64,000 nt of DNA, from the NCBI GenBank assembly GCA_964574685.1, contig CAZNOI010000005.1:1493-65492 (forward strand). Reading direction: 5' to 3'. Positions 5,969-39,849 of the stretch are shown one piece after another; within the stretch, counting starts at the first letter, position 1, and each line of letters opens with the position of its first letter. Under the pieces are notes generated by a model, which was not told the DNA's origin, ran no database searches, and saw nothing but the letters and a program-made list of their open reading frames with translations. Origin of the DNA: an uncultured Dehalococcoidia bacterium (GTDB lineage: Bacteria; Chloroflexota; Dehalococcoidia; SZUA-161). The position numbers and the translations under genes are program-made.

Positions 5969-7840
5969 CTACTCGCCCCAGATATCGGCGATGTATTCCT
6001 CCAGGCCAAGCCCCCGCAGCTTGTCGGGCGTGGGCTTGCCTGTCTCCCTGTCCCAGCCTCGTAGCTCATAGTACTTGTTAAGCATCGCGGGCAGATTCTC
6101 GTTGACCTTGCCGGCGGCCGGCCCCTCTGTCAAGGGCTCCTCCAGTAGCCGCGGCGGGAGCGTATCGTCAGACCTGGTCAGTCCTTCCCGGACATTGAAC
6201 ACTCTCGCGAGATTGTATGCCCTCTCGCCTATCTCGGCAAGGTCTTTGAAGGTGAAACCTTGTCCCAGGCAGTGCTCCACAAGCTTCACCCATTCCCCGG
6301 AATCGAGGCAGAACCCCATGAACTTGCAGGCTCCCAGCGTATCGAGTGCCGTCATGACGTTCTCCAGATCGACCAGTACATGCACCTCTTCGGGGTCGGC
6401 CACGAGGGGGTCTCTGATCTGGCTGTCGGGAATCACGAGGAACGGGATATCGAGGAACGTCGGACCCTGGATGTAGGCCGTTATGTGGTCGCCGCCCCGG
6501 TTGGCGACTGCATACGCCAGGCCGGTAATCTGGACCGCCCTTGAATCGTACGCGGGCAGCTCCAGACCCTTGACATTCATCGCGAATCTGTCACTGCCCT
6601 TGTCCAGCTTCTGCGCCATCCTGCGCGTTCCTTCTGCGAGCAGGTCCCCGATCCCATCGCGCCTGGCTATCCTGTGGATAAGCTCGATGACAACGTCGGG
6701 ATCGCCGAATCTGAGTTCCAGGCCATCCGTGTCCTGCGCGGTCAGAATCCCCTTCTCATAGCACTCGATGGCAAAGGCGATCGTGCTGCCGGTGGATATC
6801 GTGTCCATGCCGTAGTCATCGCAGAGATAGTGCCCCCAGGTGATGGCCTCCATGTCGGTGATGTGGCACTGGCCTCCGAGAGTCCCGACGGTCTCGTATT
6901 CTGGGCCTTCGCCACTCTTGCCGGAGTACTTCCCCTCCCTGATTGTCGTGCGTCTGCCGCACCTGAGAGGGCACGCGAAGCAGCCCATGGGCTCCTCGAG
7001 GACCTTTTCACTGAGGGCCTGCGCGTTTATCTCCTCGATTTCGGGGTAGACGCTTGTCTGCCAGTTCTTCGTCGGGAAACCGCCGCGCACGTTGACGAGG
7101 TCGATGACGGCGTTTGTCCCGAAGGTCTCCAGTGTGACCTTGAACATGGACTGGTCGAGAAGCTCGAACTGCTTCTTCGCAGTCGCCGAGAAGGCTTCCG
7201 GGTCGGCAATCCGCACCTGCTTCTTGCCCAGCACGGCGATTGCCTTGAGCTTCTTCGAGCCCATCACTGCCCCGCCGCCGCATCGGCCCGCAGCCCTGTG
7301 CAGGTCGTTCATTATGCTTGCGTATCTGACCAGGTTCTCACCGGCGATGCCTATGCAGTCCACATTGAACTTGTTTCCCAGCTCCTCCCTGATGAGCCGC
7401 GTCGTCTCGGACACGCTCTTTCCCCACAGGTGGGATGCGTCCCGAATCTCGGCTCCCTCTTCTGTGATCACGAGGTAGACGGGCCTATCGGCTGCTCCAC
7501 GGAAGATAATTCCGTCGTATCCGGTCTTCTTGAAATCGACTCCCCAGAACCCGGCCGAGTTCGATTGAGCCCACAGGTTGGTAAGGGGTGACTTGAATAC
7601 CCAATTGAACCGGCCTGTGCTCGGCGCCACGGTACCCGTGAGTGCACCGGTCATGAGGATGAGTTCGTTGTCCGGGCCAAGCGGCTCGGCGCCCTTTGGC
7701 ACGTCTCGATAAAGGTAGTGCGTCGCCAGGCCCGCTCCAGTGAGGTACTTGTCGAACAGTTCCTGGCGTATCTCTTCCTCCGCGACGCTTCCCCGAGAGA
7801 GATCGACTCTCAGGAGCTTTCCGTGTCCTCCGTACATCAT
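5969..7840 (-). CDS. aor: Aldehyde:ferredoxin oxidoreductase (tungsten/molybdopterin family)
   Basis: GKLLRVDLS, KSPLT, AAGRCGGGAVMGSKKLKAI, CFACPLRC, GPEYET, DTLGACKF, YYELRGW. Confidence 0.93.
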   Translation of the reverse strand: MMYGGHGKLLRVDLSRGSVAEEEIRQELFDKYLTGAGLATHYLYRDVPKGAEPLGPDNELILMTGALTGTVAPSTGRFNWVFKSPLTNLWAQSNSAGFWGVDFKKTGYDGIIFRGAADRPVYLVITEEGAEIRDASHLWGKSVSETTRLIREELGNKFNVDCIGIAGENLVRYASIMNDLHRAAGRCGGGAVMGSKKLKAIAVLGKKQVRIADPEAFSATAKKQFELLDQSMFKVTLETFGTNAVIDLVNVRGGFPTKNWQTSVYPEIEEINAQALSEKVLEEPMGCFACPLRCGRRTTIREGKYSGKSGEGPEYETVGTLGGQCHITDMEAITWGHYLCDDYGMDTISTGSTIAFAIECYEKGILTAQDTDGLELRFGDPDVVIELIHRIARRDGIGDLLAEGTRRMAQKLDKGSDRFAMNVKGLELPAYDSRAVQITGLAYAVANRGGDHITAYIQGPTFLDIPFLVIPDSQIRDPLVADPEEVHVLVDLENVMTALDTLGACKFMGFCLDSGEWVKLVEHCLGQGFTFKDLAEIGERAYNLARVFNVREGLTRSDDTLPPRLLEEPLTEGPAAGKVNENLPAMLNKYYELRGWDRETGKPTPDKLRGLGLEEYIADIWGE

Positions 7841-7956: not shown

Positions 7957-9738
7957 TCAGCAGGTGTACTTGCCGGACTCGATTATGTTGTCGGCAACGG
8001 CTCTCCTGAGCTGCATGCTGTTCAATGGAACGTACTGCATCGCCTTGCTCACAATGGCAAGCTGGCCCTGCAGCGCCTGTCCTTCTTCCATGGTTGCGAC
8101 GAGGCTGCGGGCGTAAGCCGCCACCCGCGCCATAGCCTCATTCACATATAGCTGGACCATCTGCACCTTGGGTGCGGTCTTCTGCTCGCCCGAGGAGTCG
8201 ACGGCCTTTAGTGACCTCAGGAGTCCGCTTTCCATTGCATAGACCTCCTGGGCCATATCGGACAGCAGACCGAGCACCTCCTGCTCGTCCTCGATGCCCA
8301 TGCCGTACTTCTGGGCCGCCGTGCCGCACAGCGCCAGGAACACCAGCTTGGCCCGCTTGACCAGCCTGCTCTGATACCCGAGGGGACCGTCGTCGGCTTT
8401 CGGGGCCAGGGGTTCGGACGTTTGCATCTCGTTTTTCGCCTTATCTGCCTCCGCAAACAGAGGAATCGTACCCTTCAGGGCGCTTCGGAGCAGCATGCCG
8501 ATACTCAGCACCCTGTTAATCTCGTTGGTCCCCTCGAAGATGCGGAATACCCTGTTGTCACGGTATATCTCCTCAGCGGGGTAGTCTTCCGAGAACCCGT
8601 AGCCGCCGTATATCTGCAATCCCTCGTCTGCTACGAAGTCCAGCACCTCGGAGCAATACACCTTGTTGATTGAGCATTCGACCGCATACTCGCCGATGGA
8701 CTTCGCGAACTCGCGTCCCTGGTCCTCGGCGGTGCGATCGACGCTGGCCAGGCTTCCGTCAATGAGACCGCCCGTACGGTAGACCATGCTCTCGGCCATG
8801 TAGGTCCGCGCGCCCATCTCAGCTACCTTCTGCTTGATGAGGCCGAACTGGCATATGGGTTTGCCGAACTGCACCCGCTCCTTGGAGTAGCCGACGCTGC
8901 CCTCCATGGCCAGCTTAGCGACTCCGACACAACCGGCTGCCAGCTTGAACCTGCCGAGGTTGAGGACGTTGAATGCCACTATGTGTCCTCTCCCTGTCTC
9001 AAACATCGCGTTCTCGACGGGAACCATGGCACCGTCGAGGAATATGCTGCAGGTGGAGGAACCGTGCAGGCCCATCTTCTTCTCTTCGGCGCCCGCTGAC
9101 ACACCTTCGAAGCCCTTCTCGACTATGAAGGCGGTCATCTTGTCGTCGACCTTGGCGTACGTGAAGATGAGGTCTGCGAAGCCGCCGTTCGTAACATACT
9201 GCTTCTGGCCGTCGATCTTGTAGTACTTGCCGTCCGGGGTCAGCTTCGCGGTGGCCTGGATAGACATCGCGTCGGTCCCCGAGCCGGGCTCAGTCAGCGC
9301 ATAGCAGCCGATCAGCTCCCCGCTCGCGAGACCCGGCAGGTACTTCTTCTTCTGGTCCGTGTTACCGAAGAATACCAGCGGCATGGAGCCGATTCCTGTG
9401 TGGTCGTTCAAGGTCAGCCCGAATGAGCCCGCCATCGCCGAGTGCTCGCAGATGAGCAGCGAAGTGATACTGTCCATGTGCGAGCCGCCGTACTCCTCTT
9501 CGATGTCTACCCCGAGAAGGCCCAACTCTCCCGCCATCAGCATCAGCTTGCGGCTGAGGTCCCAGTCCTTCTGCTCGAGTTCCTTGGCATGAGGCATCAC
9601 CTCGTTCCTGACGAACCGCTCGGTCGTCTTGATTATCATCTCGTGCTCTTCGCGGAAGTCCTCCGGAGTGAATACCTCGTCCGGGGGCACATCCTCATAT
9701 AGGAACGAACCACCCTTCCTGACAACCTTCTCCTGCAT
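7957..9738 (-). CDS. fadE: Acyl-CoA dehydrogenase, long FadE type
   Basis: YALTEPGSGTD, KMGLHGSST, QFGKPI, IFEGTNEINR; 593 aa, third gene of a fadN-fadA-fadE-like order. Confidence 0.92.
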   Translation of the reverse strand: MQEKVVRKGGSFLYEDVPPDEVFTPEDFREEHEMIIKTTERFVRNEVMPHAKELEQKDWDLSRKLMLMAGELGLLGVDIEEEYGGSHMDSITSLLICEHSAMAGSFGLTLNDHTGIGSMPLVFFGNTDQKKKYLPGLASGELIGCYALTEPGSGTDAMSIQATAKLTPDGKYYKIDGQKQYVTNGGFADLIFTYAKVDDKMTAFIVEKGFEGVSAGAEEKKMGLHGSSTCSIFLDGAMVPVENAMFETGRGHIVAFNVLNLGRFKLAAGCVGVAKLAMEGSVGYSKERVQFGKPICQFGLIKQKVAEMGARTYMAESMVYRTGGLIDGSLASVDRTAEDQGREFAKSIGEYAVECSINKVYCSEVLDFVADEGLQIYGGYGFSEDYPAEEIYRDNRVFRIFEGTNEINRVLSIGMLLRSALKGTIPLFAEADKAKNEMQTSEPLAPKADDGPLGYQSRLVKRAKLVFLALCGTAAQKYGMGIEDEQEVLGLLSDMAQEVYAMESGLLRSLKAVDSSGEQKTAPKVQMVQLYVNEAMARVAAYARSLVATMEEGQALQGQLAIVSKAMQYVPLNSMQLRRAVADNIIESGKYTC

Positions 9739-9752
9739 GGCAACCCCCTTCG

Positions 9753-10931
9753 TTATTGGTCTCGCTCAAATATGCCCGCAGCGCCCATGCCGCCGCCCGT
9801 GCACATTGTCACCATACCGTATCTGGCTTTCCGCCGCTGCATCTCGTGCATCAGCTTGACGGTAAGATAGACGCCGGTGCATCCCAGCGGATGCCCGAGG
9901 GCGATGGAACCCCCGTTGACATTGAGCCTGCTCATCTCGATCCCGAGTTCCCTCACCACGTACAACGATTGTGAGGCGAAGGCCTCGTTCAGCTCAATCA
10001 GGTCCACCTCGTCGATGCCGAGACCCGCGTTCTTCAGAGCCTTGGGCACCGCGACCACGGGCCCTATGCCCATGATATCGGGGTCGACCCCGCCGACACC
10101 GAACGCCCTGAAAGCGGCCATCGGCCTGAGCCCTATTTCGTGCGCTTTCTCGCGCGACATGACCACCACGGCGGCCGCGCCGTCGTTCATGGGACAGGAG
10201 TTGCCCGCCGTCACGCTTCCGCCCGCGCGGAACAGCGGCCTGAGCTTCGCCAGCCTCTCCAGAGACGTGTCTCGGCGCACACACTCGTCGGCGTCGAAGA
10301 CCTTCTCGTGTGCCGCCGGCTTCCCGTTCTCAAACGTCCGGTCCACGACCTTGATCGGCAGTATCTGCCTCTTGTACACTCCCTCGTCGTAGGCCCTTAT
10401 GGCCTTCTGGTGACTCTCGAAGGCGAATGCGTCCTGGTCCTCCCGGCTGATGCCGAAACGCTGCGCCACGTTTTCCGCCGTAAGGCCCATCGTGATGTAG
10501 GTCTCCGGCATCACCTCCATCAGCTCAGGGTCGGGCATCGGCTTGTTGCCGCCCATCGGCACGCACGTCATGTGCTCGACACCGGCTGCCACTATGATGT
10601 CGGCGAAGCCGCACATGACCCTCTGGCAGGCGATGGCGACGGCATCCAGACCAGATGCGCAGTACCTGTTCACGGTCATGCCCGGTACCTGAGCGGAGAG
10701 GCCCGCCTTGAGGGCGATGACTCTGCCTATGTTCATGCCCATCTCCGCTTCAGGAAAGGAGCAGCCCATCACCAGGTCATCTACCTGCTCGGGCTTGAGA
10801 CCTTCAGCGCGCTTCACCGCTTCTTTGACCATTTCTGCCGCGGTGTGCTCGGGCCTCGTGTTTCGGAGGCTACCGTTTATGGCGCGGCCCAGGGCCGTCC
10901 TTACCGCCGATACAATAACTGCGTCTGTCAT
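9753..10931 (-). CDS. fadA: Thiolase (acetyl-CoA C-acyltransferase)
   Basis: NRYCASG (catalytic Cys), NEAF, GHPLG, MCTGGGMG. Confidence 0.95.
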   Translation of the reverse strand: MTDAVIVSAVRTALGRAINGSLRNTRPEHTAAEMVKEAVKRAEGLKPEQVDDLVMGCSFPEAEMGMNIGRVIALKAGLSAQVPGMTVNRYCASGLDAVAIACQRVMCGFADIIVAAGVEHMTCVPMGGNKPMPDPELMEVMPETYITMGLTAENVAQRFGISREDQDAFAFESHQKAIRAYDEGVYKRQILPIKVVDRTFENGKPAAHEKVFDADECVRRDTSLERLAKLRPLFRAGGSVTAGNSCPMNDGAAAVVVMSREKAHEIGLRPMAAFRAFGVGGVDPDIMGIGPVVAVPKALKNAGLGIDEVDLIELNEAFASQSLYVVRELGIEMSRLNVNGGSIALGHPLGCTGVYLTVKLMHEMQRRKARYGMVTMCTGGGMGAAGIFERDQ

Positions 10932-24467: not shown

Positions 24468-26063
24468 CTAGAGAGGCACCAGCGAGTGCTTCCGCCAGGG
24501 AGTGGTAGGCTCCAGCTTCTTGGACAGCCGCTCGAAGGTGTTGATCAGGACGGGCCGCGTCTTGCGCGGGTCGATGATGTCGTCAGCCCCCTGGACACCG
24601 GCCAGGTGGTAGGCCGTAGCGAACTGGTCATGGACCACCTGCATCTTGTCCTGGCGCACCTGCTCGGGGTTGTCGACGGCCGCGATCTCCGAGCCGTACA
24701 GTGCATCCGCTGAGCGCTCGTAGCCCTCGACCCGCATATCGGCGGTCGGCCAGGCATACACGGCGTCCACACCCATTCTCTCGGTCCCCATGAGCAGGCG
24801 GGCCGCTCCCCAGCACCGCCTTATGTATACGGTGATCATCGGGGTTGTCGCCTCACAGATGGCGAACACCGGCTTGGCGGCGTTGCGCTCCAGGCCGTCC
24901 CTGTTCTGCTCCTGCTCGACGTCGGGCAGGAAGCCGGGGCTGTCCACCAGGAAGACGATGGGTATGTTGTAGCAGTCGCAGAACCGGACAAACCTCGCCT
25001 GCTTGTCGCAGCTATACACAGTCAGGGCGCCCTCCTGCACCGCCGGGTTGTTGGCGACAATGCCGACCGGCTGCCCTGCGAGCCTGGCGAAGCCTATCAG
25101 CATGCTCGGCGCGTACAGTGCCTGAAGCTCGAAGAAATGGCCGTTGTCCACTACGGAGGCGATGACCTCGTGCATGTCGTACGGCTTCGATACGTCGGGC
25201 GGCACGATGTCCAGCAGCTTGTCGTCGGCGCGTCTCGGGTCGTCGCCCGTGTCCGCAAGGGGCGCCTTCTCCTTCCAGTTGGAAGGAAGGAAGCTCAGCA
25301 GCTCGCGGCACTTCTCGATGGCCTCCTCGTCGCTGTCCACCAGGATATCGTTGGAGCCGGTGGTCTCCGAATGGAGCAGCGCGCCGCCGATCTCCTCCTC
25401 GGTCACATCGACGAACGTGACAGCCTTGAGGATTGGCGGTGACGCCACCGACATGAAGGCGATGTTGCGGCGCATGATGACGAAGTCGGCCATAATCGGC
25501 GAGTACGCCGACCCCGCGTAGCAGGGGCCGAGCATCAGGCTGATGTGGGGCACGACTCCTGACATCAGCGGTGGGTAGTACATGAAGCCGCCGCCCCCGC
25601 CGACCGGGCTCCCCCTTACCGGGACCTTGAACCCGCCCGTGCCGAACAGGTCATGGATTCGAATCGCGCCGGAATCTACCATACCCACGAGGGGTATGCC
25701 TTCCTCCATCGCCTGCTCCATGGCGCGGGCAACTTTGGAGTTCTGGATGGTGGACTGCGTGCCGGCCAGCACTGTGAAGTCGTGGGCGTAGGAGTAGACC
25801 AGCCGCCCGTTGACCTCGCCGTAGCCTACTATGACCGAGTCCCTGGGCAACTCCCTCTGGTCGATGTCGAATCCGGTCTTCATCGGCTGCGTCCAGATGC
25901 CGATCTCTTGGAATGTGCCCGGATCGTACAGCTTCTGAATCCGCTCCCAGGCGGTGAGCTTCCCCTTGCCGTGCTGCTTCTCCGTTTCCGCAGGCCCGCC
26001 GCCTGGCTCCAGGCGCTTTCTGTTCTCCTCCAGCTTCTTGAGAAGGTCTCGCATATCAGCCAT
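24468..26063 (-). CDS. Acyl-CoA carboxylase carboxyltransferase subunit, paralog 2
   Basis: GKLTAWERI, GPCYAGSAYSP, FVRFCDCYNIP, IIDPRKTR. Confidence 0.92.
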   Translation of the reverse strand: MADMRDLLKKLEENRKRLEPGGGPAETEKQHGKGKLTAWERIQKLYDPGTFQEIGIWTQPMKTGFDIDQRELPRDSVIVGYGEVNGRLVYSYAHDFTVLAGTQSTIQNSKVARAMEQAMEEGIPLVGMVDSGAIRIHDLFGTGGFKVPVRGSPVGGGGGFMYYPPLMSGVVPHISLMLGPCYAGSAYSPIMADFVIMRRNIAFMSVASPPILKAVTFVDVTEEEIGGALLHSETTGSNDILVDSDEEAIEKCRELLSFLPSNWKEKAPLADTGDDPRRADDKLLDIVPPDVSKPYDMHEVIASVVDNGHFFELQALYAPSMLIGFARLAGQPVGIVANNPAVQEGALTVYSCDKQARFVRFCDCYNIPIVFLVDSPGFLPDVEQEQNRDGLERNAAKPVFAICEATTPMITVYIRRCWGAARLLMGTERMGVDAVYAWPTADMRVEGYERSADALYGSEIAAVDNPEQVRQDKMQVVHDQFATAYHLAGVQGADDIIDPRKTRPVLINTFERLSKKLEPTTPWRKHSLVPL

Positions 26064-26078
26064 CTGTTTCCTCCTGGA

Positions 26079-27626
26079 CTACAGCCGGATGTTCTCGTGC
26101 TTTCTCTTGGGCCTGCCCTCGTCTCTGTGCTCCAGCGCCTTCAGCGCCTTGATAAGGAACGAGCGCGTATCTCTCGGATCGAGGAAGTCCTGCGCCCACT
26201 CGCGCTCCAGCGACTTGAACTTCTCCTGCATCTCGGCGACCCGTTTGGCCTGCTGCTCCTCTTTCTTCTTCGGGTCCTCGATCGCCGCGAACTCGCGCTT
26301 ATAGATGATCGAGACGGCGCCCTCCGCGCCCATCAGGCCTCGCTCGACTGTCGGCCAGGCCACGTCGAGGTCGCCGCCGAGGGTGGTACCGGGCATGCCG
26401 AGCTGGCCGCCGCCGTAAAGCTTGCGTATAGCGATGGTGATCTGCGGCACCGTGGCCTCGACGTTGGAGAATACCAGCTTGCAGCCGTGCCGGATCAGCC
26501 CCCTGGTCTCCTCGTCCACCGCGGGCAGGAACGCGGGCGTATCGGCGAGCCAGATGAGGGGGATGTTGAACGCGTCGCAGAAGCGGGCAAACCAGGCCAT
26601 CTTGTCCGCCGCGTCCAGCGTCAGCGAGCCGCCCATAGCCTTGGGATTGTTCGCGATGATGCCAGCCGTCTTGCCGTCCAGCCGGACGAAGCCTGTAATC
26701 AGGTTGTTCGCCCACTGCTTCTTGAGTTCGAGGAACTCGCCATTATCCGCGACGAGAGATATCAGCTTCTGCATATCGTAGGGCTTCATGGCGTCGAACG
26801 GAACGAGGCTCAGAAGCTCCTCTTCCCTGCGGTCAGGGTCGTCGCCGGTGTCCACGACAGGCAGGGTTTTCTTGTCGTTGCTGAGGGGCAGGTAGCTGAG
26901 CAACTGCCTGCAGGTCTCGATGCACTCCTCGTCACCCTTCGCCAGGAGGTCACAACATCCGGTCTTCTTGGAGTGAACCGAGGAGTCCCCGACCTCCATG
27001 GGGGTCTTGTCTTCAGGCGGCGGTGCAACGTGCATGAAGCTGGTCTTCCTGGTCATGAAGACGAAGTCTGACAACTGCGCCGTGATCGCGAGTTCGCCCG
27101 AGCAGGGGCCCATAATCATCGCGATCTGCGGAATGACGCCCGACGCCATGGTCTGGAAGTGGGCGAAGGACTCGGGAGAGTAGAAGCGATAGTACTGAAG
27201 GGCGTCCTCCACCCTGGCGCCCTGCGAGTCGATGATGCCCACGATGGGCACGCGCGCGTGAACGGCCTTCTCCATGACCATAGCGATCTTGCGGGAATGC
27301 ATGTTCGCCAGGGTACCGCCCATAACGGTCGCATCCTGAGCCCAGAGGAACACGGGCCGACCGTGGACTTCGCCGTATCCCACAGCCACGCCGTCCGCCG
27401 AGCCCTCCTGGTTGTCGATGGCGAAGCCTGTGGCCAGGGGAGTGCCCCATATGTCCAGTTCCGCGAAGGTGCCGGGGTCGAGCAGCCTGTCGATCCTCTC
27501 GCGGGCGGTGAGCTTGCCCTCCTCATGCTGCTTCTCGATGGCCTCGGGGCCGCCGCCCTGCCTCAGCATATTGCGAAGCTCATCGATCTCGGCGAGACGC
27601 TTCTGCATCAGCTCCAGGTCGTCCAT
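26079..27626 (-). CDS. Acyl-CoA carboxylase carboxyltransferase subunit, paralog 3 (close paralog of 18802..20343)
   Basis: Long shared stretches with paralog 1, e.g. ADTPAFLPAVDEETRGLIRHGCKLVFSNVE and FKSLEREWAQDF. Confidence 0.92.
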   Translation of the reverse strand: MDDLELMQKRLAEIDELRNMLRQGGGPEAIEKQHEEGKLTARERIDRLLDPGTFAELDIWGTPLATGFAIDNQEGSADGVAVGYGEVHGRPVFLWAQDATVMGGTLANMHSRKIAMVMEKAVHARVPIVGIIDSQGARVEDALQYYRFYSPESFAHFQTMASGVIPQIAMIMGPCSGELAITAQLSDFVFMTRKTSFMHVAPPPEDKTPMEVGDSSVHSKKTGCCDLLAKGDEECIETCRQLLSYLPLSNDKKTLPVVDTGDDPDRREEELLSLVPFDAMKPYDMQKLISLVADNGEFLELKKQWANNLITGFVRLDGKTAGIIANNPKAMGGSLTLDAADKMAWFARFCDAFNIPLIWLADTPAFLPAVDEETRGLIRHGCKLVFSNVEATVPQITIAIRKLYGGGQLGMPGTTLGGDLDVAWPTVERGLMGAEGAVSIIYKREFAAIEDPKKKEEQQAKRVAEMQEKFKSLEREWAQDFLDPRDTRSFLIKALKALEHRDEGRPKRKHENIRL

Positions 27627-27710
27627 AGTGCCTCCTTAAAGACGCGTAGAAAGCATTCTACCGGCTGGTGGGGGGTATCGTCAACTCCGCTGCGAGTGAT
27701 GAGTCTCGCC

Positions 27711-27813
27711 GACGACCCCTGCGCGCACGCGCGCTGGTTTGACGCAATGCCCGCGACAGGTCACCTGGCCAGCCGGGACGACCCCTGCGCGCACGCGCGC
27801 TGGTTTGACGCAA
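27711..27813. repeat. Two identical 37-bp direct repeats separated by 29 bp
   Basis: GACGACCCCTGCGCGCACGCGCGCTGGTTTGACGCAA at 27711-27747 and 27777-27813. Confidence 0.95.
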
Positions 27814-27834
27814 AACTGAGGCAAATGGTATACT
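27805..27834 (+). promoter_or_regulatory. Sigma70-type promoter with extended -10
   Basis: TTGACG-18 bp-TATACT with TG at the extended -10 position; the -35 lies inside the second 37-bp repeat. Confidence 0.6.
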
Positions 27835-27897
27835 GATGCTCGATTCCGCCCGATTCCCCGTCATCGAAAGGCACAGGCAAGAAAGGAGCAGTCTATA

Positions 27898-29058
27898 ATG
27901 TCCGGTTTCGGCTTCTCCGAGGAACAGGAGAGACTACAGGAGGAAGTGAAGCGGTTCGCGCAGAGGGAGCTTGCACCCGGTGCACTGGCCAGAAGCAAGA
28001 TGGGCCCCGAAGAGCTGCACGAGAACCTGAAGGACATCGACAAGAAGATAGTCGAGCTTGGATGGACGAAGATTAACGTGCCCGAGAAGTATGGAGGGTA
28101 TCCACTCGGCCACGTGGAGATAGGTATCATTCACGAGGAAGTGCACAAAGTGGATCCGACGGTCGAGGCTGTTGGGGGTATGGAGGCTACCAGCGCCCTG
28201 CTACAGACGCTGCCCCAAGATGTGCAGGATGAATGGTTCCCGGCCCTCATCAATCGCGACCAACGGCATTCATTCGGCTTCACTGAATCGGCGGCCGGTT
28301 CGGATGCGGCAGGCATCGTGACCAAAGCCGTCAGGGATGGGGATGAATACGTCATCAACGGCGAGAAGACACCTCTTCCGGGCGCGACCGTAGCTGATGT
28401 CGTCAGCATATCCACCAAGACAGACCCGAACGCGGGATTCAAGGGCGTCAGCCTGTTCTGGATTCCCACCAACTTTCCCGGCGTGACTATCCAGCATCTC
28501 CCCTGGATGGGCAACACCAGCCTGTATCCCAGCTTCGTCACATTTGACGACGTGCGCGTACCTGCCAAGTACCGCGAGGGCGAAGAGGGTATGGGCTTCT
28601 ACACGGTCATGGGCACGCTTGACTGGCTGCGAATCATAGTGGCTCTGACCTGTCTCGCCAGGGCGCAGGCCTCGATCCAGGACGCAATGGAGTGGTCGAA
28701 GGAGCGCAAGACCTTCGGCAGGGCGATAGCGAGCTACCAAGGGGTATCCTTCGACATCGCGGAGCACTACACCGCGGTCGAGGCGGCGAGGCTGCTTTGC
28801 TATCGGACTCTCTGGCTGAAGGATCAGGGCAAGCCGCACACCGTCGAGTCCTCGATGGCGAAGTGGTTCAGTGTCGAGGTCTCGCTGCAGTGCATCAAGG
28901 ATATGATGGTCCTCATCGGCCATCCGGGGTACAGCACGGAACACCCGATCTCTCAGCGGCTCAGGGACGTGATCGGCTATCAGCTCGGTGACGGCCCTCC
29001 GCAGATCCAGAAGATGATCATTGCCAGGCTACTCATCGGCAAGGCTGTGGTCGGCTAG
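27898..29058 (+). CDS. Acyl-CoA dehydrogenase
   Basis: FGFTESAAGSDAA, INGEK, RKTFGR.I..YQG, SSMAK, GHPGYS; ends QLGDGPPQIQ. Confidence 0.92.
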   Translation: MSGFGFSEEQERLQEEVKRFAQRELAPGALARSKMGPEELHENLKDIDKKIVELGWTKINVPEKYGGYPLGHVEIGIIHEEVHKVDPTVEAVGGMEATSALLQTLPQDVQDEWFPALINRDQRHSFGFTESAAGSDAAGIVTKAVRDGDEYVINGEKTPLPGATVADVVSISTKTDPNAGFKGVSLFWIPTNFPGVTIQHLPWMGNTSLYPSFVTFDDVRVPAKYREGEEGMGFYTVMGTLDWLRIIVALTCLARAQASIQDAMEWSKERKTFGRAIASYQGVSFDIAEHYTAVEAARLLCYRTLWLKDQGKPHTVESSMAKWFSVEVSLQCIKDMMVLIGHPGYSTEHPISQRLRDVIGYQLGDGPPQIQKMIIARLLIGKAVVG

Positions 29059-29886: not shown

Positions 29887-29909
29887 GGTGAAGCTCCGGC
29901 CGATTGGGA

Positions 29910-31031
29910 CTAGCCGGCGAACGAGTCCCTGATCTTGTCGAAGAGACCTTTGTCTTCTCCCGGCATGTTGGCCTCACCCAGGCTCCCTGCGAGTTCGCGG
30001 AACAGCTTCTTCTGCTTGGGATCGAGCGACTCAGGGGTAACGACGTGCAGCCTGACCAGTTGGTCGCCCCTTCCTTCCCTGCGGAGGTGCGGCACGCCCT
30101 TCTCCTTCAGGCGGAAGACCTTGCCGTGCTGAGTGCCTGCCGGTATCTTCAGCTTTTCCTTCCCGTCGACCGTGGGCACTTCCAACTCGTCCCCCAGGGC
30201 CGCCTGAGCGAAGTTGATGGGCAGGTCGTAGAGTATGTCGTCGCCTTCCCGTTTGAAGGACTTGTGCTTCTTGACGGACAAGGTTACATAGAGGTTGCCG
30301 GGACCGCCGCCCCTCGTCCCCGCGTCCCCCTCGCCCGAAAGCCTGATCTGGGTGTTGCTGTCTACGCCGGGGGGCATCTTGACGGATATCTTGCGGGAGG
30401 CACGCTCCCTGCCCTTGCCGCCGCAATGCTTGCAGGGATCGGTCACAAGCTTGCCTTCCCCTCTGCAGGTGGCGCAGGTGGCGAGATTGACGAACTGCCC
30501 GAAGATGCTCCTCTGTGCCCGGCGTACCTGGCCCGACCCCTTGCACTCGGGACACTGCTCCGGCTGGCTTCCAAGCTCACATCGGGTACCGTGACAGGCC
30601 GAGCAACGCTCGCTGCGCACGATCTCCATTTCCTTGTCGCAGCCGAACACGGCTTCTTCGAAAGTGATCTCCAGGCCGTAGTTGAGGTCGGCTCCGCGCT
30701 GGGGTCCGGCCCGTCTCGCAGTACCACCGGCGCCGCCGAAGAACGCGTCGAATATGTCACCGATTCCTCCGAAGTCGAAGCCGTCGAATCCCCTGGCGCC
30801 GAAGCCGTGGGCACCCGCGTGGCCGAAGCGGTCATAGGCGGCGCGCTTCTGGGAGTCCTTAAGGGTCTCGTAGGCCTCGGTAACCTCCTTGAAGGACTCA
30901 GCCGCGCCGTGATTCCTGTTGTGATCGGGGTGGTACTTGAAGGCCAGCTTCCGATAGGCCCTCTTGATGTCCTCCTCGGAGGCATTCCTGTCGACGCCGA
31001 GAACTTCGTAATAGTCTCTCTTGGTTGCCAT
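29910..31031 (-). CDS. dnaJ: Molecular chaperone DnaJ
   Basis: J domain with HPD, G/F region, four CxxCxGxG-type repeats, C-terminal domain. Confidence 0.98.
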
Positions 31032-31193
31032 GGCCTGACCCTGGAGTCGTCGCTAAACCTCAATTATAGAGCAGGCATGTGGATGACACAATACGTGCAG
31101 CACCATATTCCTATCGCAAGTGTCGCTGTATGCTCGAGGGGCGGAGCGCTCGATCCGCGGACGATGCTCCGCTCGGGGGTGTCCGAGGAAATG

Positions 31194-31224
31194 TGGAACA
31201 CCCCGAGGTTCTCGGGGTGTTCCA
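31194..31224. terminator. Perfect 14-bp hairpin downstream of the RiPP cluster
   Basis: TGGAACACCCCGAG-GTT-CTCGGGGTGTTCCA; a second weaker hairpin lies at about 31141-31173. Confidence 0.5.
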
Positions 31225-31396
31225 TCTGAGGTCTGTTCCAGCTACGAAGCCGCTTCCCAGCGCCTGACTCAGCAGCCAGTTGCACCATCAGTTCTGGGTA
31301 TGGTGTAGGAGGCGAGAAGTTGTCGTCTTCAGGCCTCCGGCGGATTGCCAATGCTTCTGGCCCTCCGCTGGTTCTTCACCGGGTTCTAAGGTTCTC

Positions 31397-31540
31397 CTAT
31401 CTGCAGCATAAGCCGAAGAACGGCTGCAAGACGTGGATAGGCCCCTGATCGTCACCACCGGCTGGACTGCCGGAGGCGACCAGAGTCTGCGGCTGCACCG
31501 TCTCGGTCACCATCTTCGGCTTCTCGTACGTCTTCCTCAT
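31397..31540 (-). CDS. Putative RiPP precursor peptide, 47 aa
   Basis: Hand translation MRKTYEKPKMVTETVQPQTLVASGSPAGGDDQGPIHVLQPFFGLCCR. Strong RBS GGAGGGAGGTG, YxxP leader motif, directly downstream of RRE and rSAM genes. Below the ORF-track size cut-off. Confidence 0.85.
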   Translation of the reverse strand: MRKTYEKPKMVTETVQPQTLVASGSPAGGDDQGPIHVLQPFFGLCCR

Positions 31541-32582
31541 GTCTCACCTCCCTCCGGGCGAGGATTTCGCTCCTTATGGCTGCGTTTTGGCAGGCGCTGG
31601 GAGCCGGCTTCGTCAGTTCTCCTGTTTCGGTGAGGTTTCGCCCTGTACACCGATTGCAGTTCTCCCTCAGGTCGCAGTCATTGCATTGATGGAAATCGCT
31701 CTCCTCCAGTCGTCTCAGAAGGGTAAGCTCGGGTATAGACGAACCGGACCAGATGTCCGCGAAGGACTGCTGTCTCAAGTTGCCCAATTTGAGCGGCATC
31801 ATGATGCAGGGGAAGACATCGCCGTTGGGCGCGACGGAGCATGTGGCGCGTCCCGCTTTGCAGATGCCGGTGCTCTCAGGACTGTCATCCTTCGGGACCA
31901 TCCAGTCAGCGTCATAGTACTCGTGTAGCTGTGCCGGGGTTAGTCTGTGGTCCCTCGGGTGCGACTCCCCGCTCTTCGTGGGGGCCAGATCGTAGCTGAA
32001 TTCGACCGCGATGTTCATGGTGTCCGCCAGCTTCTGGATCTCGGACGCTTCATGCACGTTGTCGGACATAAGCACAGCCTGCAGCTTCACCGGTATACGG
32101 CGCTGCTGGAGCAGGTCTATGCCGCGCAGAGTCTCCAGGAGAGAGCCGGGACGACCGGTGATATGGTCGTGTGTCCGGCTCGTGACACCGTAGACACTCA
32201 TGCCCACGAAGAGGGGCCTGAGCCAGGATATCTCCTCAGCAATCCTGGGTGTTATGAGGGTTCCGTTGGTCAGAAGCATGAGTATGAAACCCTGCCGGCG
32301 TGCGTAATGGGCAATGTCCAGGAAGTCCTTCCGTACCAGCGGCTCTCCTCCTGTGATCAGCAGATAAAGGCAGCCAGCGGACCTGAGCTGGTCGATGACG
32401 TTGTGCCACTCCTGAAGTGACAGCTCGTCCCCGTACGGAGCGTCCACATAGCAGTGCCTGCACCTGAGGTTGCACCTGTATGTGATCTCCAGTGCCGCCT
32501 GAAGAGGCACCAGGTTCTCCGCCGCCCTGGACATAACCTGATGCAGCAGCGGCTGCATCTCCGAATCGCAATAGGGGTCCAT
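31452..32582 (-). CDS. Radical SAM protein with SPASM domain (peptide maturase type)
   Basis: CNLRCRHC, ITGGEPL, SPASM cysteines CKAG...FPC...CNDC...CNRC...C. Confidence 0.93.
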   Translation of the reverse strand: MDPYCDSEMQPLLHQVMSRAAENLVPLQAALEITYRCNLRCRHCYVDAPYGDELSLQEWHNVIDQLRSAGCLYLLITGGEPLVRKDFLDIAHYARRQGFILMLLTNGTLITPRIAEEISWLRPLFVGMSVYGVTSRTHDHITGRPGSLLETLRGIDLLQQRRIPVKLQAVLMSDNVHEASEIQKLADTMNIAVEFSYDLAPTKSGESHPRDHRLTPAQLHEYYDADWMVPKDDSPESTGICKAGRATCSVAPNGDVFPCIMMPLKLGNLRQQSFADIWSGSSIPELTLLRRLEESDFHQCNDCDLRENCNRCTGRNLTETGELTKPAPSACQNAAIRSEILARREVRHEEDVREAEDGDRDGAAADSGRLRQSSRW

Positions 32583-32585
32583 ACG

Positions 32586-32870
32586 CTAATGCTCCCTTGG
32601 GGACGTGCTCGCGGTGGCCAGGTTGGCTTCGAGAAGCTCGGAGCAGAACTGGTCTACGTCAGCCTGCGCCTCTTCCGGTGCGACCTCGAAGCGCTGCGAG
32701 AGAGCGGCCGCTATCTCGTCCGACAACCGGGTACCGTCAGCCAGCAGCCAAATGTAGCTGGCGGTCTCGTTGAGCATACGGATAGTGCAGTCGTTTTCTC
32801 CTACTATCACCACTTCGCCCGCGATATCCCGCCAGATCACTTCATCGCTTCTGGATACGTAGCAGCCCAT
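32586..32870 (-). CDS. PqqD-family RiPP recognition element
   Basis: LNETASYIWLLADG..L..IAAALSQRFEV..E.A..DV..F..EL. Confidence 0.9.
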   Translation of the reverse strand: MGCYVSRSDEVIWRDIAGEVVIVGENDCTIRMLNETASYIWLLADGTRLSDEIAAALSQRFEVAPEEAQADVDQFCSELLEANLATASTSPREH

Positions 32871-32872
32871 AC

Positions 32873-33793
32873 TCAGCCCACCTCCATATCGAAACAGTTC
32901 TCTACAGCTTCCCAGAACGTGGTGTCCGGCCTGAAGCTGAGCTCATATGCCGGCACGCCGGCGGCGATGGCCGCGCTCAGGTCGGCGCGCTCAGGCAGGT
33001 ATTCCAGTCGGCGAATGTCGAACAGGGGGGATGAATCCAGCACCTGTGCCAGAAGGCCGCGGTAGGCTTCCCCGCCGTTGAGCCGTCTGAGTTCCACTCT
33101 GTCTGCCTGTCTGAGCAGGAACGCAGCCGACAGCGTCTCGGAATCGGGAGAGCGCTCTGCGACGCCGCCGTCGAAAGGCGTCCCCACTATGCGGATGCCG
33201 GAACCGTTCCTGCCGACGAGCACCGTCTCGTCGTTCAATACCTTTCGGCCACCGGCCAGGGATGCCACCGTTGTCTTGCCAATGCCCGATGGGCCGGTGA
33301 ACAGGTACGCCCGCCCATCGGAGATGACTCCGCAGCCGTGCATCAGGTAGGCGTCAGGCGGCTCGTCTCTCAGCCACTTGAATATCGAATAGTAAAGTCC
33401 GCGCAACAGGTGGTTCATCAGCTTGTAGTTTGCCTGCGCGGCGAACAGCTCTCTCTCCGTCTCGACGCGTACCTGCCGCATCTTCCTGTCGAGATAGCAG
33501 TCGATGAGCCAGGGATGAGTAAAGAATCTGCTCCCGTCGCAGTGCGCTTCGATATTGCGTATGACTTCGCTGACCTCGCCGGCGGTGAGGTAATCGTGGA
33601 GATTGAGGTCGATAGTATACTCCGGTGGTCTCTCCACCAGAAAGGACCTGTAGGATGCGGCCATACGGTCCTGTATGCCCGGGTCGCTGCAGCGCACACC
33701 TACGCATGCGTCGCCGACAGCCAGGCTGAGATAGCCGTCTGAACGCACGTCGCTGTAGCCCGGTGATTGCGAAGGGTGACTCATTGGGACCAT
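32873..33793 (-). CDS. HPr-kinase-related P-loop protein
   Basis: MHGCGV, LFTGPSGIGKTT, VLNDE, GTPF; motif order typical of the HprK-related kinases found in RiPP loci. Confidence 0.8.
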   Translation of the reverse strand: MVPMSHPSQSPGYSDVRSDGYLSLAVGDACVGVRCSDPGIQDRMAASYRSFLVERPPEYTIDLNLHDYLTAGEVSEVIRNIEAHCDGSRFFTHPWLIDCYLDRKMRQVRVETERELFAAQANYKLMNHLLRGLYYSIFKWLRDEPPDAYLMHGCGVISDGRAYLFTGPSGIGKTTVASLAGGRKVLNDETVLVGRNGSGIRIVGTPFDGGVAERSPDSETLSAAFLLRQADRVELRRLNGGEAYRGLLAQVLDSSPLFDIRRLEYLPERADLSAAIAAGVPAYELSFRPDTTFWEAVENCFDMEVG

Positions 33794-33946: not shown

Positions 33947-35029
33947 GTGGCCGCGAAAGAGAAGGACGCCTACTCTGTACTTGCCGAGAGGCACGGCTTC
34001 GAGTCATCGGAGCCCTATCTCCGGGTGCTCCAATTCCTCATGACGCCGGAACAGGCTGACCTCGTGACGCTCCTGCCCGGCTCACCGGAGGATGTCGCCG
34101 ACAAGGCCGGGATGGGAGTAGCAGCGGCGAGAGAGACCATCGAGCTCCTGGTCAGGAAAGGCGTGGTGGTGCCGGTCGACTTCAGGATGGGCGACCGGTA
34201 CCAGTTCTGCAAGTACGCGGAGCGATTGTGGGAGGTGAGCGAGTCCCTGATGGGGCTGGACATATACACGGAGGACGAATACCGGGAGCTGTTCCGCCTC
34301 TGGGAGGAGTGGAAGAAGACCGACTACGCCGACATGACAGCTGAGAGGTGGCTCAACCTCAAGGCGATGGGCATACACGGCCTGAGAATCATTCCCGCTT
34401 ACCGCGCAATACTGGACATGCCGGACCTACTGCCACAGGAAGACGTCCGGGAGATGGTCAGAGTGCAGCCGCTCATCACAGTTGTCTCGTGTTCATGCCG
34501 GAAGCACAAGAAGATGATCGGGAGCCCCTGCAGGAAGTCCGACGCCGATGCCAATTGCCTTCAGTTCGCGAAGTCGGCAGAGTATTCTCTGAGCCGGGGT
34601 CATGGACGTCGGATATCGACCGATGAGGCTGTGTCAATACTCGAGATGAACGAGGAGGACGGGCTGGTACATCAGTGGATGAACCACAGCAAGGTGGAGG
34701 CAGCACCGCCCTATGCCCTGTGCAGTTGCTGCCGGTGCTGCTGCACTGTGTGGCATGCCGCCGATATCAGGAGCGTGCCCAACGATGCGGTCTTCGCCAG
34801 GAGCCGCTACGAGGCGAGGGTCGACGCTTGTGAGTGCATCGGCTGCGGGCTCTGCATGGACCGCTGCCAGTTCGACGCCATAAACATGGTGCCGGTCGAG
34901 GGTTCCACCGAAACGAGAGCTGTGGTCGACCCGGAGAAGTGCTGGGGCTGCGGGGTGTGCACGCTTGTCTGCGAACCCGGGGCGCTCGGGATGCACCTTG
35001 TCAGGCCGCCGGAGCACATCCCCGCCTGA
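33947..35029 (+). CDS. 4Fe-4S dicluster protein with N-terminal HTH-like region
   Basis: CSCR, CSCCRCCC, CIGCGLCMDRCQF, CWGCGVCTLVC. Confidence 0.85.
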   Translation: MAAKEKDAYSVLAERHGFESSEPYLRVLQFLMTPEQADLVTLLPGSPEDVADKAGMGVAAARETIELLVRKGVVVPVDFRMGDRYQFCKYAERLWEVSESLMGLDIYTEDEYRELFRLWEEWKKTDYADMTAERWLNLKAMGIHGLRIIPAYRAILDMPDLLPQEDVREMVRVQPLITVVSCSCRKHKKMIGSPCRKSDADANCLQFAKSAEYSLSRGHGRRISTDEAVSILEMNEEDGLVHQWMNHSKVEAAPPYALCSCCRCCCTVWHAADIRSVPNDAVFARSRYEARVDACECIGCGLCMDRCQFDAINMVPVEGSTETRAVVDPEKCWGCGVCTLVCEPGALGMHLVRPPEHIPA

Positions 35030-38703: not shown

Positions 38704-39849
38704 ATGCAGGCGTCGCAGGACTCCATCGCCCGGTTCCTCGAAGCGTTTCTGAAGCCGTGGCATGCTGCTGTAGCGGAGCCGGCGGAGGCGCAGCGCACGG
38801 TGTTGCAGCGCCTTCTTGAAGGGTACGCCAGGACCGGCTATGGAGCGCAGCACGGCGCCGCTCAAGTAGAAAGCATAGAGGACTACAGGCGCGCCTTCCC
38901 CGTTGTCACCTACGACGACTGCAAACCGCTGATCGAGCAGGTCATGGAAGGCGACACCAGCATCCTGCTCTTCGAAGAGCCCTCCGGCTGGGCCATCACC
39001 CGGGGCACGACCAGAGGCGAATCCAAGTTCATACCCATGACTCCAACCGACATCGCGATCAGGTCCAGCGCCGGGCGGGCGGTCATCAACTACGTTGCGT
39101 CCACCGGTCAGCCTGCGTTGCTGAACGGGGCCAATCTGAACCTGAACTTCCCGTCCGTCGTAGGTACGGTTCAAGCGGGAGACAGGCAACTCGAATACGG
39201 CTACAGCTCGGGCATCTACCTGCGACACGTCTCAGACCTCACTCCTGTGCGTTCTGTCCCAACGCAGGATGAGATCGATGCCGTCGGCGGTACGACGTCG
39301 ATACGGGACTGGGAAGCACGCTTTGAACTCGCCTATCGCAAGTGCCAGGACGAGGATGTGACCATAGTAGGCGGTGTTGTGCAGACGGCCCTCACCTTTG
39401 GTCGCTACCTCAAGCGCGCGCACGGGGTATATCCAAGGGACCTCTGGCGGGTCCGGGTCATGACGCTGGGCAGTCTGCCCGGAATCAACACTCGCTGTGT
39501 CTCGGCGCTGCGTGCTCTGTACGGGCCGGTTTCAGTCCGCGAGATATACGGGGCAACCGAGGGTATGTTCGGACAGCAGCGCGATGACAGGAGGGCCTGG
39601 GTGCCGAACTATGATCAGTGCGTGTTCGAGGTGCAGACGAGGTCGGGAATCAAGATGCTCCACGAGATGAGGCCCGGAGAGATGGGCAGCCTCGTGGTGT
39701 CGACGTCCGTCTTGCCTCGCTACATGATAGGCGACCTGATAAGAGCATTCAGGGCGCCGTACTTCCGATGCATCGGGCGCGACCGCTGGTGGGTGCCCCT
39801 GGACTACTTCTGGGGCGAGTTCATGACGCTCAACCTGGATCGGCTGTAG
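38704..39849 (+). CDS. GH3-family (auxin-responsive-like) acyl-adenylate protein
   Basis: ITRGTTRGESKFIP, EIYGATEG, GSLVVSTSVLPRYMIGD. Confidence 0.8.
   Translation: MQASQDSIARFLEAFLKPWHAAVAEPAEAQRTVLQRLLEGYARTGYGAQHGAAQVESIEDYRRAFPVVTYDDCKPLIEQVMEGDTSILLFEEPSGWAITRGTTRGESKFIPMTPTDIAIRSSAGRAVINYVASTGQPALLNGANLNLNFPSVVGTVQAGDRQLEYGYSSGIYLRHVSDLTPVRSVPTQDEIDAVGGTTSIRDWEARFELAYRKCQDEDVTIVGGVVQTALTFGRYLKRAHGVYPRDLWRVRVMTLGSLPGINTRCVSALRALYGPVSVREIYGATEGMFGQQRDDRRAWVPNYDQCVFEVQTRSGIKMLHEMRPGEMGSLVVSTSVLPRYMIGDLIRAFRAPYFRCIGRDRWWVPLDYFWGEFMTLNLDRL

Follow-up and report, generated by a model that had tools for sequence, protein, structure and literature searches.

A four-gene operon on the minus strand of contig CAZNOI010000005.1, from an uncultured Dehalococcoidia bacterium, was analyzed within a stretch of 64,000 nucleotides (positions 1,493 to 65,492 of the contig; hereafter the window, with coordinates counted from its first base). 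With a probability of roughly 0.7, the operon encodes a pathway for a peptide that is made on the ribosome and modified after translation (RiPP) and is a minimal member of a large uncharacterized superfamily that combines an ScmC-type kinase, a stand-alone PqqD-type RiPP recognition element (RRE) and a radical S-adenosylmethionine (rSAM) enzyme with a SPASM domain. The list of open reading frames (ORFs) contained four intact and tightly packed frames at 31397-33793. The features of the region, all on the minus strand, are:

32873-33793, minus strand: ScmC-family P-loop protein with the fold shared by HprK and phosphoenolpyruvate carboxykinase (PEPCK), 306 amino acids, putative peptide kinase
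32586-32870, minus strand: stand-alone PqqD-family RRE, 94 amino acids
31452-32582, minus strand: predicted rSAM/SPASM peptide maturase, 376 amino acids as an ORF
31397-31540, minus strand: precursor peptide gene, 47 amino acids, MRKTYEKPKMVTETVQPQTLVASGSPAGGDDQGPIHVLQPFFGLCCR
31547-31555, minus strand: Shine-Dalgarno sequence GGAGGGAGG of the precursor gene, within the rSAM codons for 'RREV'
31218-31384, minus strand: conserved, structured non-coding stretch after the precursor stop codon, from alignment and consensus fold
31195-31223, minus strand: perfect GC-rich hairpin, GGAACACCCCGAG-aacc-CTCGGGGTGTTCC, 13-14 bp

The ScmC and PqqD genes are separated by 2 nt and the PqqD and rSAM genes by 3 nt, and the rSAM and precursor ORFs overlap by 89 nt. 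An earlier note, made from the letters alone, had described minus-strand genes with gaps of 2-3 nt, an overlap and hairpins on the 3′ side, and this layout was borne out by the ORFs and by folding. The domain assignments and synteny likewise upheld its proposal of a RiPP-type gene set consisting of an HprK-like P-loop enzyme, a PqqD RRE, one rSAM-SPASM enzyme and a YxxP precursor. All of the loci examined encode a homologous peptide beside these three enzyme genes, and matching gene order together with a homologous peptide was found in at least 10 different genomic contexts. Peptide homologues directly followed the rSAM gene in the related loci L001, L003, L005, L006, L087, L088, L090, L093 and L094.

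Judged from its sequence, the small ORF is a genuine precursor gene, having its own ribosome-binding site (GGAGG, 6 nt upstream of the ATG at 31540) and a family of homologues. A profile search of a collection of 5.8 billion proteins returned 35 clusters, and residue conservation was judged on an alignment of 37 precursor-family sequences, the consensus of which is MKEPYEKPKMVTE-IEIG-LVA-GSP---PI-QL-PFFGLC(C or PPC)x. Four residues were invariant: Tyr5 and Pro8, which lie in the leader motif YEKPxM as Tyr5-x-x-Pro8, and Pro34 and Cys45. Phe41 and Phe42 were conserved. The window precursor was the only match in the window to the family hidden Markov model (80 bits, E 7.5e-24), and its comparison with the precursor of L087 gave 12 codons with synonymous differences only and 13 with non-synonymous differences. 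No NCBIfam or Pfam model matched the window precursor, none of the 18 precursor peptides scanned matched an NCBIfam family, and the FFGLC peptide motif was not mentioned in the literature searched.

The residue positions cited in the earlier note (Ser23, Ser25, Cys45 and Cys46) agree with the translation of the precursor. Its naming of Cys45 as a candidate for the crosslink was strengthened by the invariance of this residue in all 37 family members. Cys46 did not stand, since it is not invariant and two family members have a single Cys. A cyclophane formed through His36 and Phe, the other crosslink that had been suggested, is disfavored; it was given up as the leading idea for want of conservation of His36 in the family.

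The proposed phosphorylation at Ser23 or Ser25 was a guess, of which only the second half is retained. Ser23 was rejected as the phospho-acceptor because it is replaced by Cys in the closest relatives (L087 and P0175), and Ser25, which is conserved within the subclade only and lies in a loosely aligned Gly/Ser/Pro linker, appears to be the better guess for the window precursor. A Ser/Thr/Tyr-Pro pair was present in the linker of 32 of the 37 peptides, at loosely aligned positions. The window precursor terminates in Cys-Cys-Arg (CCR), and a terminal Ser was found in 9 of the 37 close family members. The full-cassette peptide of the L090 type is one with a terminal Ser, reading FRLCCS at its end, and leader cleavage is predicted after the small-residue A-x-G motif.

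Precursor genes of another form were also seen. In L003/L004 (7035-7280, peptide P0169) and in P0201 the precursor gene is an ORF of 81 or 64 amino acids with two tandem leader-like repeats, which read MKEPCEKPKML... and then MKEPYEEPEMV.... The Cys core is present only in the second repeat of P0169, and P0201 has no Cys at all. Duplication or degeneration of the precursor could account for the two-repeat form, as could a decoy leader.

The window PqqD protein matched the Pfam PqqD model with 63.4 bits (E 2.5e-17; gathering score 23.4). Its best NCBIfam matches, all below their cut-offs, were the lasso PqqD chaperone (31.1 bits, cut-off 70), ScmD (29.9 bits) and PqqD (29 bits). A PqqD gene was found in every related cassette examined.

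The rSAM protein matched Pfam Radical_SAM with 81.8 bits and SPASM with 48.1 bits, both above the gathering thresholds. It contains the cluster motif C37xxxC41xxC44 and a seven-Cys SPASM domain, six cysteines of which (C241, C259, C300, C303, C309, C312) are invariant and the seventh, C331, nearly so. None of 71 NCBIfam cut-offs was passed. The highest scores were for AhbD (153.7 bits, cut-off 500), NirJ (141.5), MftC (138.8, cut-off 265) and ScmE (127.4, cut-off 400), with NirJ2 also near the top. The earlier note had raised the prospect that the enzyme might belong to a characterized non-peptide family; judged by these scores it does not, the AhbD and NirJ scores being less than a third of the respective cut-offs. 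Among characterized peptide maturases, the window rSAM belongs to no family either, with AlbA, SkfB, StsB, WgkB, PqqE and MftC far below cut-off and PapB judged on a relative only. Of the solved structures, the sactisynthase SkfB came nearest with 84 bits, followed by PqqE with 54 bits.

Homologues of the rSAM enzyme are about 345 amino acids long and end at the start of the precursor gene, usually with an ATGA overlap. Because they stop at this length, the last ~30 amino acids of the window rSAM ORF are read as a read-through tail. The window gene has lost the ATGA stop/start coupling of its relatives and, read in a frame other than that of the precursor, covers 89 nt of the precursor gene (31452-31540). 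Conservation of the tail was seemingly limited to P0001 and is taken as a by-product, since the same DNA encodes the precursor in the other frame. In the relatives with an equally minimal cassette, the rSAM proteins share about 60% identity with that of the window.

Searches of NCBIfam with the window ScmC protein gave weak matches over residues 147-205, to ScmC (22.7 bits), HprK_rel_B and HprK_rel_A, and the Pfam family PF27840 (ScmC) was assigned to it by precomputed annotation. An AlphaFold2 model of the protein had a predicted local distance difference test score of 91.7. Foldseek comparison of this model with the PDB identified ATP-dependent PEPCK (E 2e-8, template modeling score about 0.5 over the query) and HprK/P (E 4e-5 to 4e-4), and both structural matches take in the P-loop phosphotransferase domain; at the level of sequence, the ScmC profile found only generic P-loop matches in the PDB. 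Alignment of 31 homologues revealed invariant H152, G167, G170, G172, K173, T175 and D188 and nearly invariant E189. A distant family member, in L018, directly matched the HPr(Ser) kinase and PEPCK models, and the ScmC proteins of the closest relatives are 70% identical to that of the window. 'HprK-like kinase' is therefore a fair label for the modeled fold and the active site, from which the activity is predicted. The set H152/K173/D188/E189 reads His-Lys-Asp-Glu, its residue correspondence to the lasso-kinase motif being taken from motif order.

The wider distribution of the cassette was surveyed by a genome scan with the rSAM alignment and the generic CxxxCxxC pattern, which yielded 80 loci of distant relatives (≤45% identity) and none from the species of the window. 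In about 30 of the 80 the ScmC, PqqD and rSAM genes formed a triad on one strand, in varying order and with one to three rSAM genes. Hosts of the triad included Anaerolineae, Nitrospirota, Omnitrophota, Elusimicrobia, Acidobacteriota, delta-proteobacteria and others, and the close homologues of the window operon were annotated as Chloroflexota. When ScmC-like proteins were searched for exhaustively with a profile, the representatives of 50%-identity clusters numbered 979 with E≤1e-30 and 12,498 with E≤1e-10. The earlier suggestion of a novelty peculiar to one lineage thus gives way to that of a pared-down form of a cassette superfamily that is very large and present in many phyla. Its suggestion of an uncharacterized RiPP class fared better: no curated family covers the cassette, and the literature searched does not describe it. 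Absent from that literature were the cassette itself, the function of ScmC or SynChlorMet, PF27840 and PF14907, and any RiPP pairing of an HPr kinase with a radical SAM enzyme.

Most cassettes of the superfamily add a signal-peptidase-I-like protease, an ABC-2 exporter and an NTP_transf_5 nucleotidyltransferase. The protease of these relatives is membrane-anchored and of the archaeal/SipW type, scoring 61.5 bits against TIGR02228, above the cut-off, in L094. The window, L001/L002 and L087 alike lack all three genes. Indeed, no signal-peptidase-like protease, NTP_transf_5 protein or ABC-2 exporter was detected anywhere in the 64-kb window, and profile searches found no second copy of the rSAM, ScmC, PqqD or precursor gene in it; the sole ABC ATPase match lies 28 kb from the operon. 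The operon accordingly lacks a second rSAM, a dedicated peptidase and an exporter within the window, as the earlier note had stated. The lasso cyclase and B2 protease that it had also reported missing were not found among the operon ORFs and flanking genes, the lasso-specific models not having been run on the whole 64 kb.

In the Anaerolineae locus L006 (9172-10277), a stop-to-stop ORF scan placed the protease (9172-9915) in overlap with the PqqD domain (9516-10277), which could represent a protease-PqqD fusion. In the near-identical L090, protease and PqqD are two genes (6286-6882 and 7077-7373). Cassettes of this lineage have their genes in the order ScmC, rSAM, precursor, peptidase, PqqD, ABC-2 exporter and NTP_transf_5.

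Precursors of the distant cassettes were sought with a pattern that required a YxxPx[LIMV] leader and one Cys or more but no C-terminal Ser. The candidates had a Lys-rich leader containing this motif and a Cys-rich core, and often stood immediately before the ScmC gene. A C-terminal Ser, the residue targeted by lasso HprK-like kinases, was present in 16 of the 21, and on this basis ScmC is read as a precursor kinase. By analogy with the lasso systems, the best-supported interpretation extends this role to ScmC proteins in general, and the RRE-kinase pair, with or without the nucleotidyltransferase, would be a tailoring module common to lasso and rSAM pathways. As the window precursor ends in CCR, either its acceptor differs or the role of the kinase has shifted in the subclade.

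The SynChlorMet cassette of Haft (ScmC TIGR04249, ScmD TIGR04248, ScmE TIGR04250 and ScmF TIGR04251) has the same component types as the window operon, and SCM models occur among the matches of all three window enzymes. The window ScmC protein, however, matched its model over the C-terminal half only and scored 22.7 bits against a cut-off of 125, and the PqqD protein scored 29.9 against 100 for ScmD, so neither is an equivalog. SynChlorMet has two rSAM paralogues and the window one, which reached 127.4 bits for ScmE and 82.1 for ScmF against 400 each. Judged from these matches, the window operon is evolutionarily related to the SynChlorMet cassette, for which no product or function has been published in the literature searched.

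A second comparison is with the phosphorylated lasso peptides paeninodin and pseudomycoidin. The HprK-like kinases PadeK, ThcoK and PsmK phosphorylate the C-terminal Ser of the linear lasso precursor, the His-Lys-Asp-Asp motif of these kinases is essential, and in the pseudomycoidin pathway a nucleotidyltransferase decorates the phosphate after phosphorylation. PqqD-type RREs and lasso B1 proteins are established leader-peptide binders. The lasso pathways share with the window a stand-alone PqqD RRE and a YxxP leader, the binding of which is predicted, and their kinases are members of the HprK superfamily whose His/Lys/Asp set, going by motif order, seems to recur in the window ScmC protein. 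The lasso nucleotidyltransferase PsmN may have its parallel in the cassette relatives, which carry NTP_transf_5 together with Ser-ending precursors. In contrast, the window operon has no lasso cyclase or B2 protease, its class-defining enzyme being the rSAM-SPASM protein, and the window has no nucleotidyltransferase, no C-terminal Ser, and a catalytic His-Lys-Asp-Glu in place of His-Lys-Asp-Asp.

The maturases of sactipeptides and ranthipeptides (SkfB, AlbA, StsB and PapB) resemble the window rSAM in having a full SPASM domain and a Cys-containing precursor encoded alongside, and the AlbA, StsB and SkfB models aligned with it over most of their length. Its scores are far under the cut-offs (AlbA, 99 versus 850 bits; StsB, 114 versus 625 bits). 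Their RRE is fused N-terminally, whereas that of the window operon is a separate protein; an HprK-like partner is not obligatory in these classes, and only one Cys is invariant in the window peptide family. The mycofactocin system (MftA/MftB/MftC) likewise combines a small peptide, a stand-alone PqqD-like RRE and an rSAM-SPASM enzyme in a compact operon without an exporter, and the window rSAM aligned with MftC over residues 26-314, although at 138.8 bits against the required 265. Mycofactocin has no kinase, and the Gly-Val-Tyr C-terminus of MftA is missing from the window precursor. For the heme-pathway enzymes AhbD and NirJ, the scores of 153.7 and 141.5 bits compare with cut-offs of ~500 or more. 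Overall, the window operon looks like a hybrid of the sacti/ranthipeptide-type and kinase-tailored lasso pathways.

The proposed mechanism begins with translation of the 47-residue precursor from its own GGAGG site. By analogy with known RREs, the stand-alone PqqD protein would bind the N-terminal leader through Tyr5-x-x-Pro8 and hand the bound precursor to the rSAM-SPASM enzyme. This enzyme is predicted to install a radical crosslink in the P-F-F-G-L-C45 box, the likeliest form being a thioether that joins Cys45 to a carbon close by, for example one of Phe41 or Phe42; the involvement of Cys45 is suggested by its conservation and by the SkfB/AlbA-type relatives of the enzyme. ScmC would phosphorylate a peptide hydroxyl using ATP, a role assigned on account of its modeled fold and the H152/K173/D188/E189 catalytic set. 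The acceptor in the distant cassettes is probably the C-terminal Ser, as in the lasso kinases, and the best candidate in the window precursor is Ser25. Because no protease, exporter or nucleotidyltransferase gene is linked to the operon, removal of the leader and export would depend on unlinked genes, or the product may be intracellular.

The operon is flanked by housekeeping genes. Upstream and divergent is the gene for a 2x[4Fe-4S] protein, followed by genes for a DUF4389 protein, a zinc-ribbon protein, an M50/CBS protein and UbiA; the downstream genes encode DnaJ, RsmE, an acyl-CoA dehydrogenase and carboxyltransferases. The 2x[4Fe-4S] neighbor is a protein of 360 amino acids with a C-terminal 2x[4Fe-4S] ferredoxin domain (window 33947-35029, plus strand; L001 3452-4531; L087 248-1348). 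It is the divergent upstream neighbor in all three minimal-cassette loci, including L087 with its different downstream context, and weaker homologues (about 1e-29) were found near the cassettes of L093 and L030. The protein could be an electron donor for the rSAM enzyme, or the association could be merely one of synteny.

Two carboxyltransferase-domain ORFs, one of them confirmed by Pfam, and the acyl-CoA dehydrogenase occupy 24468-29058 beside the operon. Close homologues of the dehydrogenase carry the JGI label 'cyclohexanecarboxyl-CoA dehydrogenase', a hint that the host may metabolize alicyclic or aromatic acids anaerobically. The dehydrogenase itself falls into one 90%-identity cluster with proteins assigned to a 'Dehalococcoidia bacterium', which fits the host. 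On the plus strand at 38704-39849, a 381-residue protein matched only the N-terminal domain of GH3 (acyl-acid amido synthetase), with 90 bits. Long antisense ORFs were also noted, for example 29904-31229 (plus strand, 441 amino acids) opposite dnaJ and one of 203 amino acids opposite PqqD/ScmC. They are of low complexity and rich in Ala, Gly, Arg and Pro, a composition to be expected at 60% G+C, and are best read as non-genes.

The 231 nt beyond the precursor stop codon folded with -97.9 kcal/mol (z = -5.19 versus shuffled sequences), and the hairpin at 31195-31223 was present in both the minimum free energy and the centroid structures. A simple promoter and terminator scan returned nothing for the operon; it misses this hairpin because no T-run follows it. 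The hairpin is likely the end of the transcript. A stretch of ~170 nt (window 31218-31384) is conserved at the nucleotide level in L001 (7195-7364) and L087 (3996-4165), and compensating 1-nt indels disrupt the overlapping 'MAIRRR...' ORF. The consensus fold predicted from the three loci contains 39 pairs, 5 of them with compensatory changes. Searches with nhmmer found the stretch in these three loci only, together with a partial second copy in L087 (6752-6826, E 1e-19). In L087 dnaJ is missing from the downstream side, so that the element goes with the peptide operon. Rfam gave no match for the whole window or for the 3′ region. The stretch is a putative 3′ untranslated region or small RNA.

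Several observations weigh against a kinase-tailored, radically crosslinked peptide as the product of the window operon. The peptidase, exporter and NTP_transf_5 protein of the fuller cassettes are missing here, so that the product could be incomplete or different. The window precursor lacks the C-terminal Ser expected from known kinase specificity, and the alternative Ser/Thr-Pro of the linker is loosely positioned and missing from 5 of the 37 peptides. Where the lasso-kinase motif has its second Asp, ScmC has Glu. The best NCBIfam scores of the rSAM are for the non-peptide enzymes AhbD and NirJ, yet are far below the ~500-bit cut-offs. Finally, the modification chemistry of all family members is entirely inferred.

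One alternative, which is unlikely, takes the product to be a redox or metal-binding peptide or a cofactor precursor that remains inside the cell, and not a secreted bioactive peptide, as in the mycofactocin and pyrroloquinoline quinone pathways, with the C-terminal CC or CPPC (CxxC-type) as the functional element. The core is unusually conserved for a RiPP, reading PFFGLC and then C or PPC in most of the 37 sequences, and the full-length alignment of the rSAM with the mycofactocin maturase model, the missing exporter and peptidase, and the divergent 2x[4Fe-4S] neighbor in the window, L001 and L087 would all fit such a product. Most relatives with the same peptide family, however, carry the protease and ABC-2 exporter, pointing to secretion, and the rSAM falls short of the MftC cut-off with no Gly-Val-Tyr terminus on the peptide. 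The ferredoxin link may, moreover, reflect the shared ancestry of three close genomes, the match near other cassettes being ~1e-29.

We assign a similarly low probability to the possibility that ScmC is not a peptide Ser/Thr kinase in this subclade and instead acts on a carboxylate or small-molecule substrate, serves as an ATP-dependent scaffold or chaperone of the rSAM-RRE pair, or is a relic left after loss of the Ser. The absent C-terminal Ser and the Glu at the fourth catalytic position are in keeping with this, as are a fold closer to PEPCK, a small-molecule kinase, than to HprK/P and a sequence similarity to the HprK family confined to ~60 residues around the P-loop. Nevertheless, the family, the window protein included, shows no variation at the catalytic His, the P-loop Lys/Thr or the Asp, the gene has been kept at 70% identity in the closest relatives, and ScmC often adjoins the precursor gene in distant cassettes.

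That the locus is the decaying remnant of a fuller cassette and makes no mature product is improbable. The genes missing relative to most relatives, the loss of ATGA coupling and the run of the rSAM ORF into the precursor gene are what decay might leave, but the four ORFs are intact with their catalytic residues preserved, the precursor core is conserved with many codon differences synonymous, and L001/L002 and L087 have kept this minimal architecture at ~60% (rSAM) and ~70% (ScmC) identity, which indicates long-term purifying selection. The notion of a non-peptide heme-type enzyme beside a spurious small ORF, which could draw on the top matches to AhbD, NirJ2 and NirJ and on the JGI name 'AdoMet-dependent heme synthase' for one homologue, is effectively refuted by synteny and the peptide family, given scores under a third of the curated cut-offs, a gene always found beside a PqqD RRE and a conserved YxxP peptide, and a small-ORF family of 35 clusters with invariant residues.

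Few ribosomal peptide natural products are phosphorylated, and the pairing of a kinase with a radical SAM crosslinking enzyme had no characterized precedent in the literature searched. A bolder form of the interpretation, on which only slight weight is placed, is that the cassettes define a new RiPP class in which an RRE-guided HprK/PEPCK-fold kinase and an rSAM enzyme share one Cys-containing peptide as substrate. The Dehalococcoidia-type subclade of the window would then have lost the C-terminal Ser, the protease, the exporter and the nucleotidyltransferase and turned the kinase toward a hydroxyl within the peptide. The outcome would be an intracellular redox or metal-binding factor that is phosphorylated and carries a thioether or carbon crosslink.

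The interest of these findings lies mostly in the superfamily that they expose and less in the reduced locus of the window. A small operon is tied to a family that is very large and extends across many uncultured phyla. Its precursor peptides are now identified: they have a YxxP leader and a Cys-rich core, and those of most distant cassettes also a C-terminal Ser. This provides the testable hypothesis that ScmC proteins phosphorylate the C-terminal Ser in the manner of the lasso kinases, with the window precursor, which has no such Ser, as the contrasting case. Characterization of one member would annotate thousands of genes and provide a new enzyme pair for peptide engineering.

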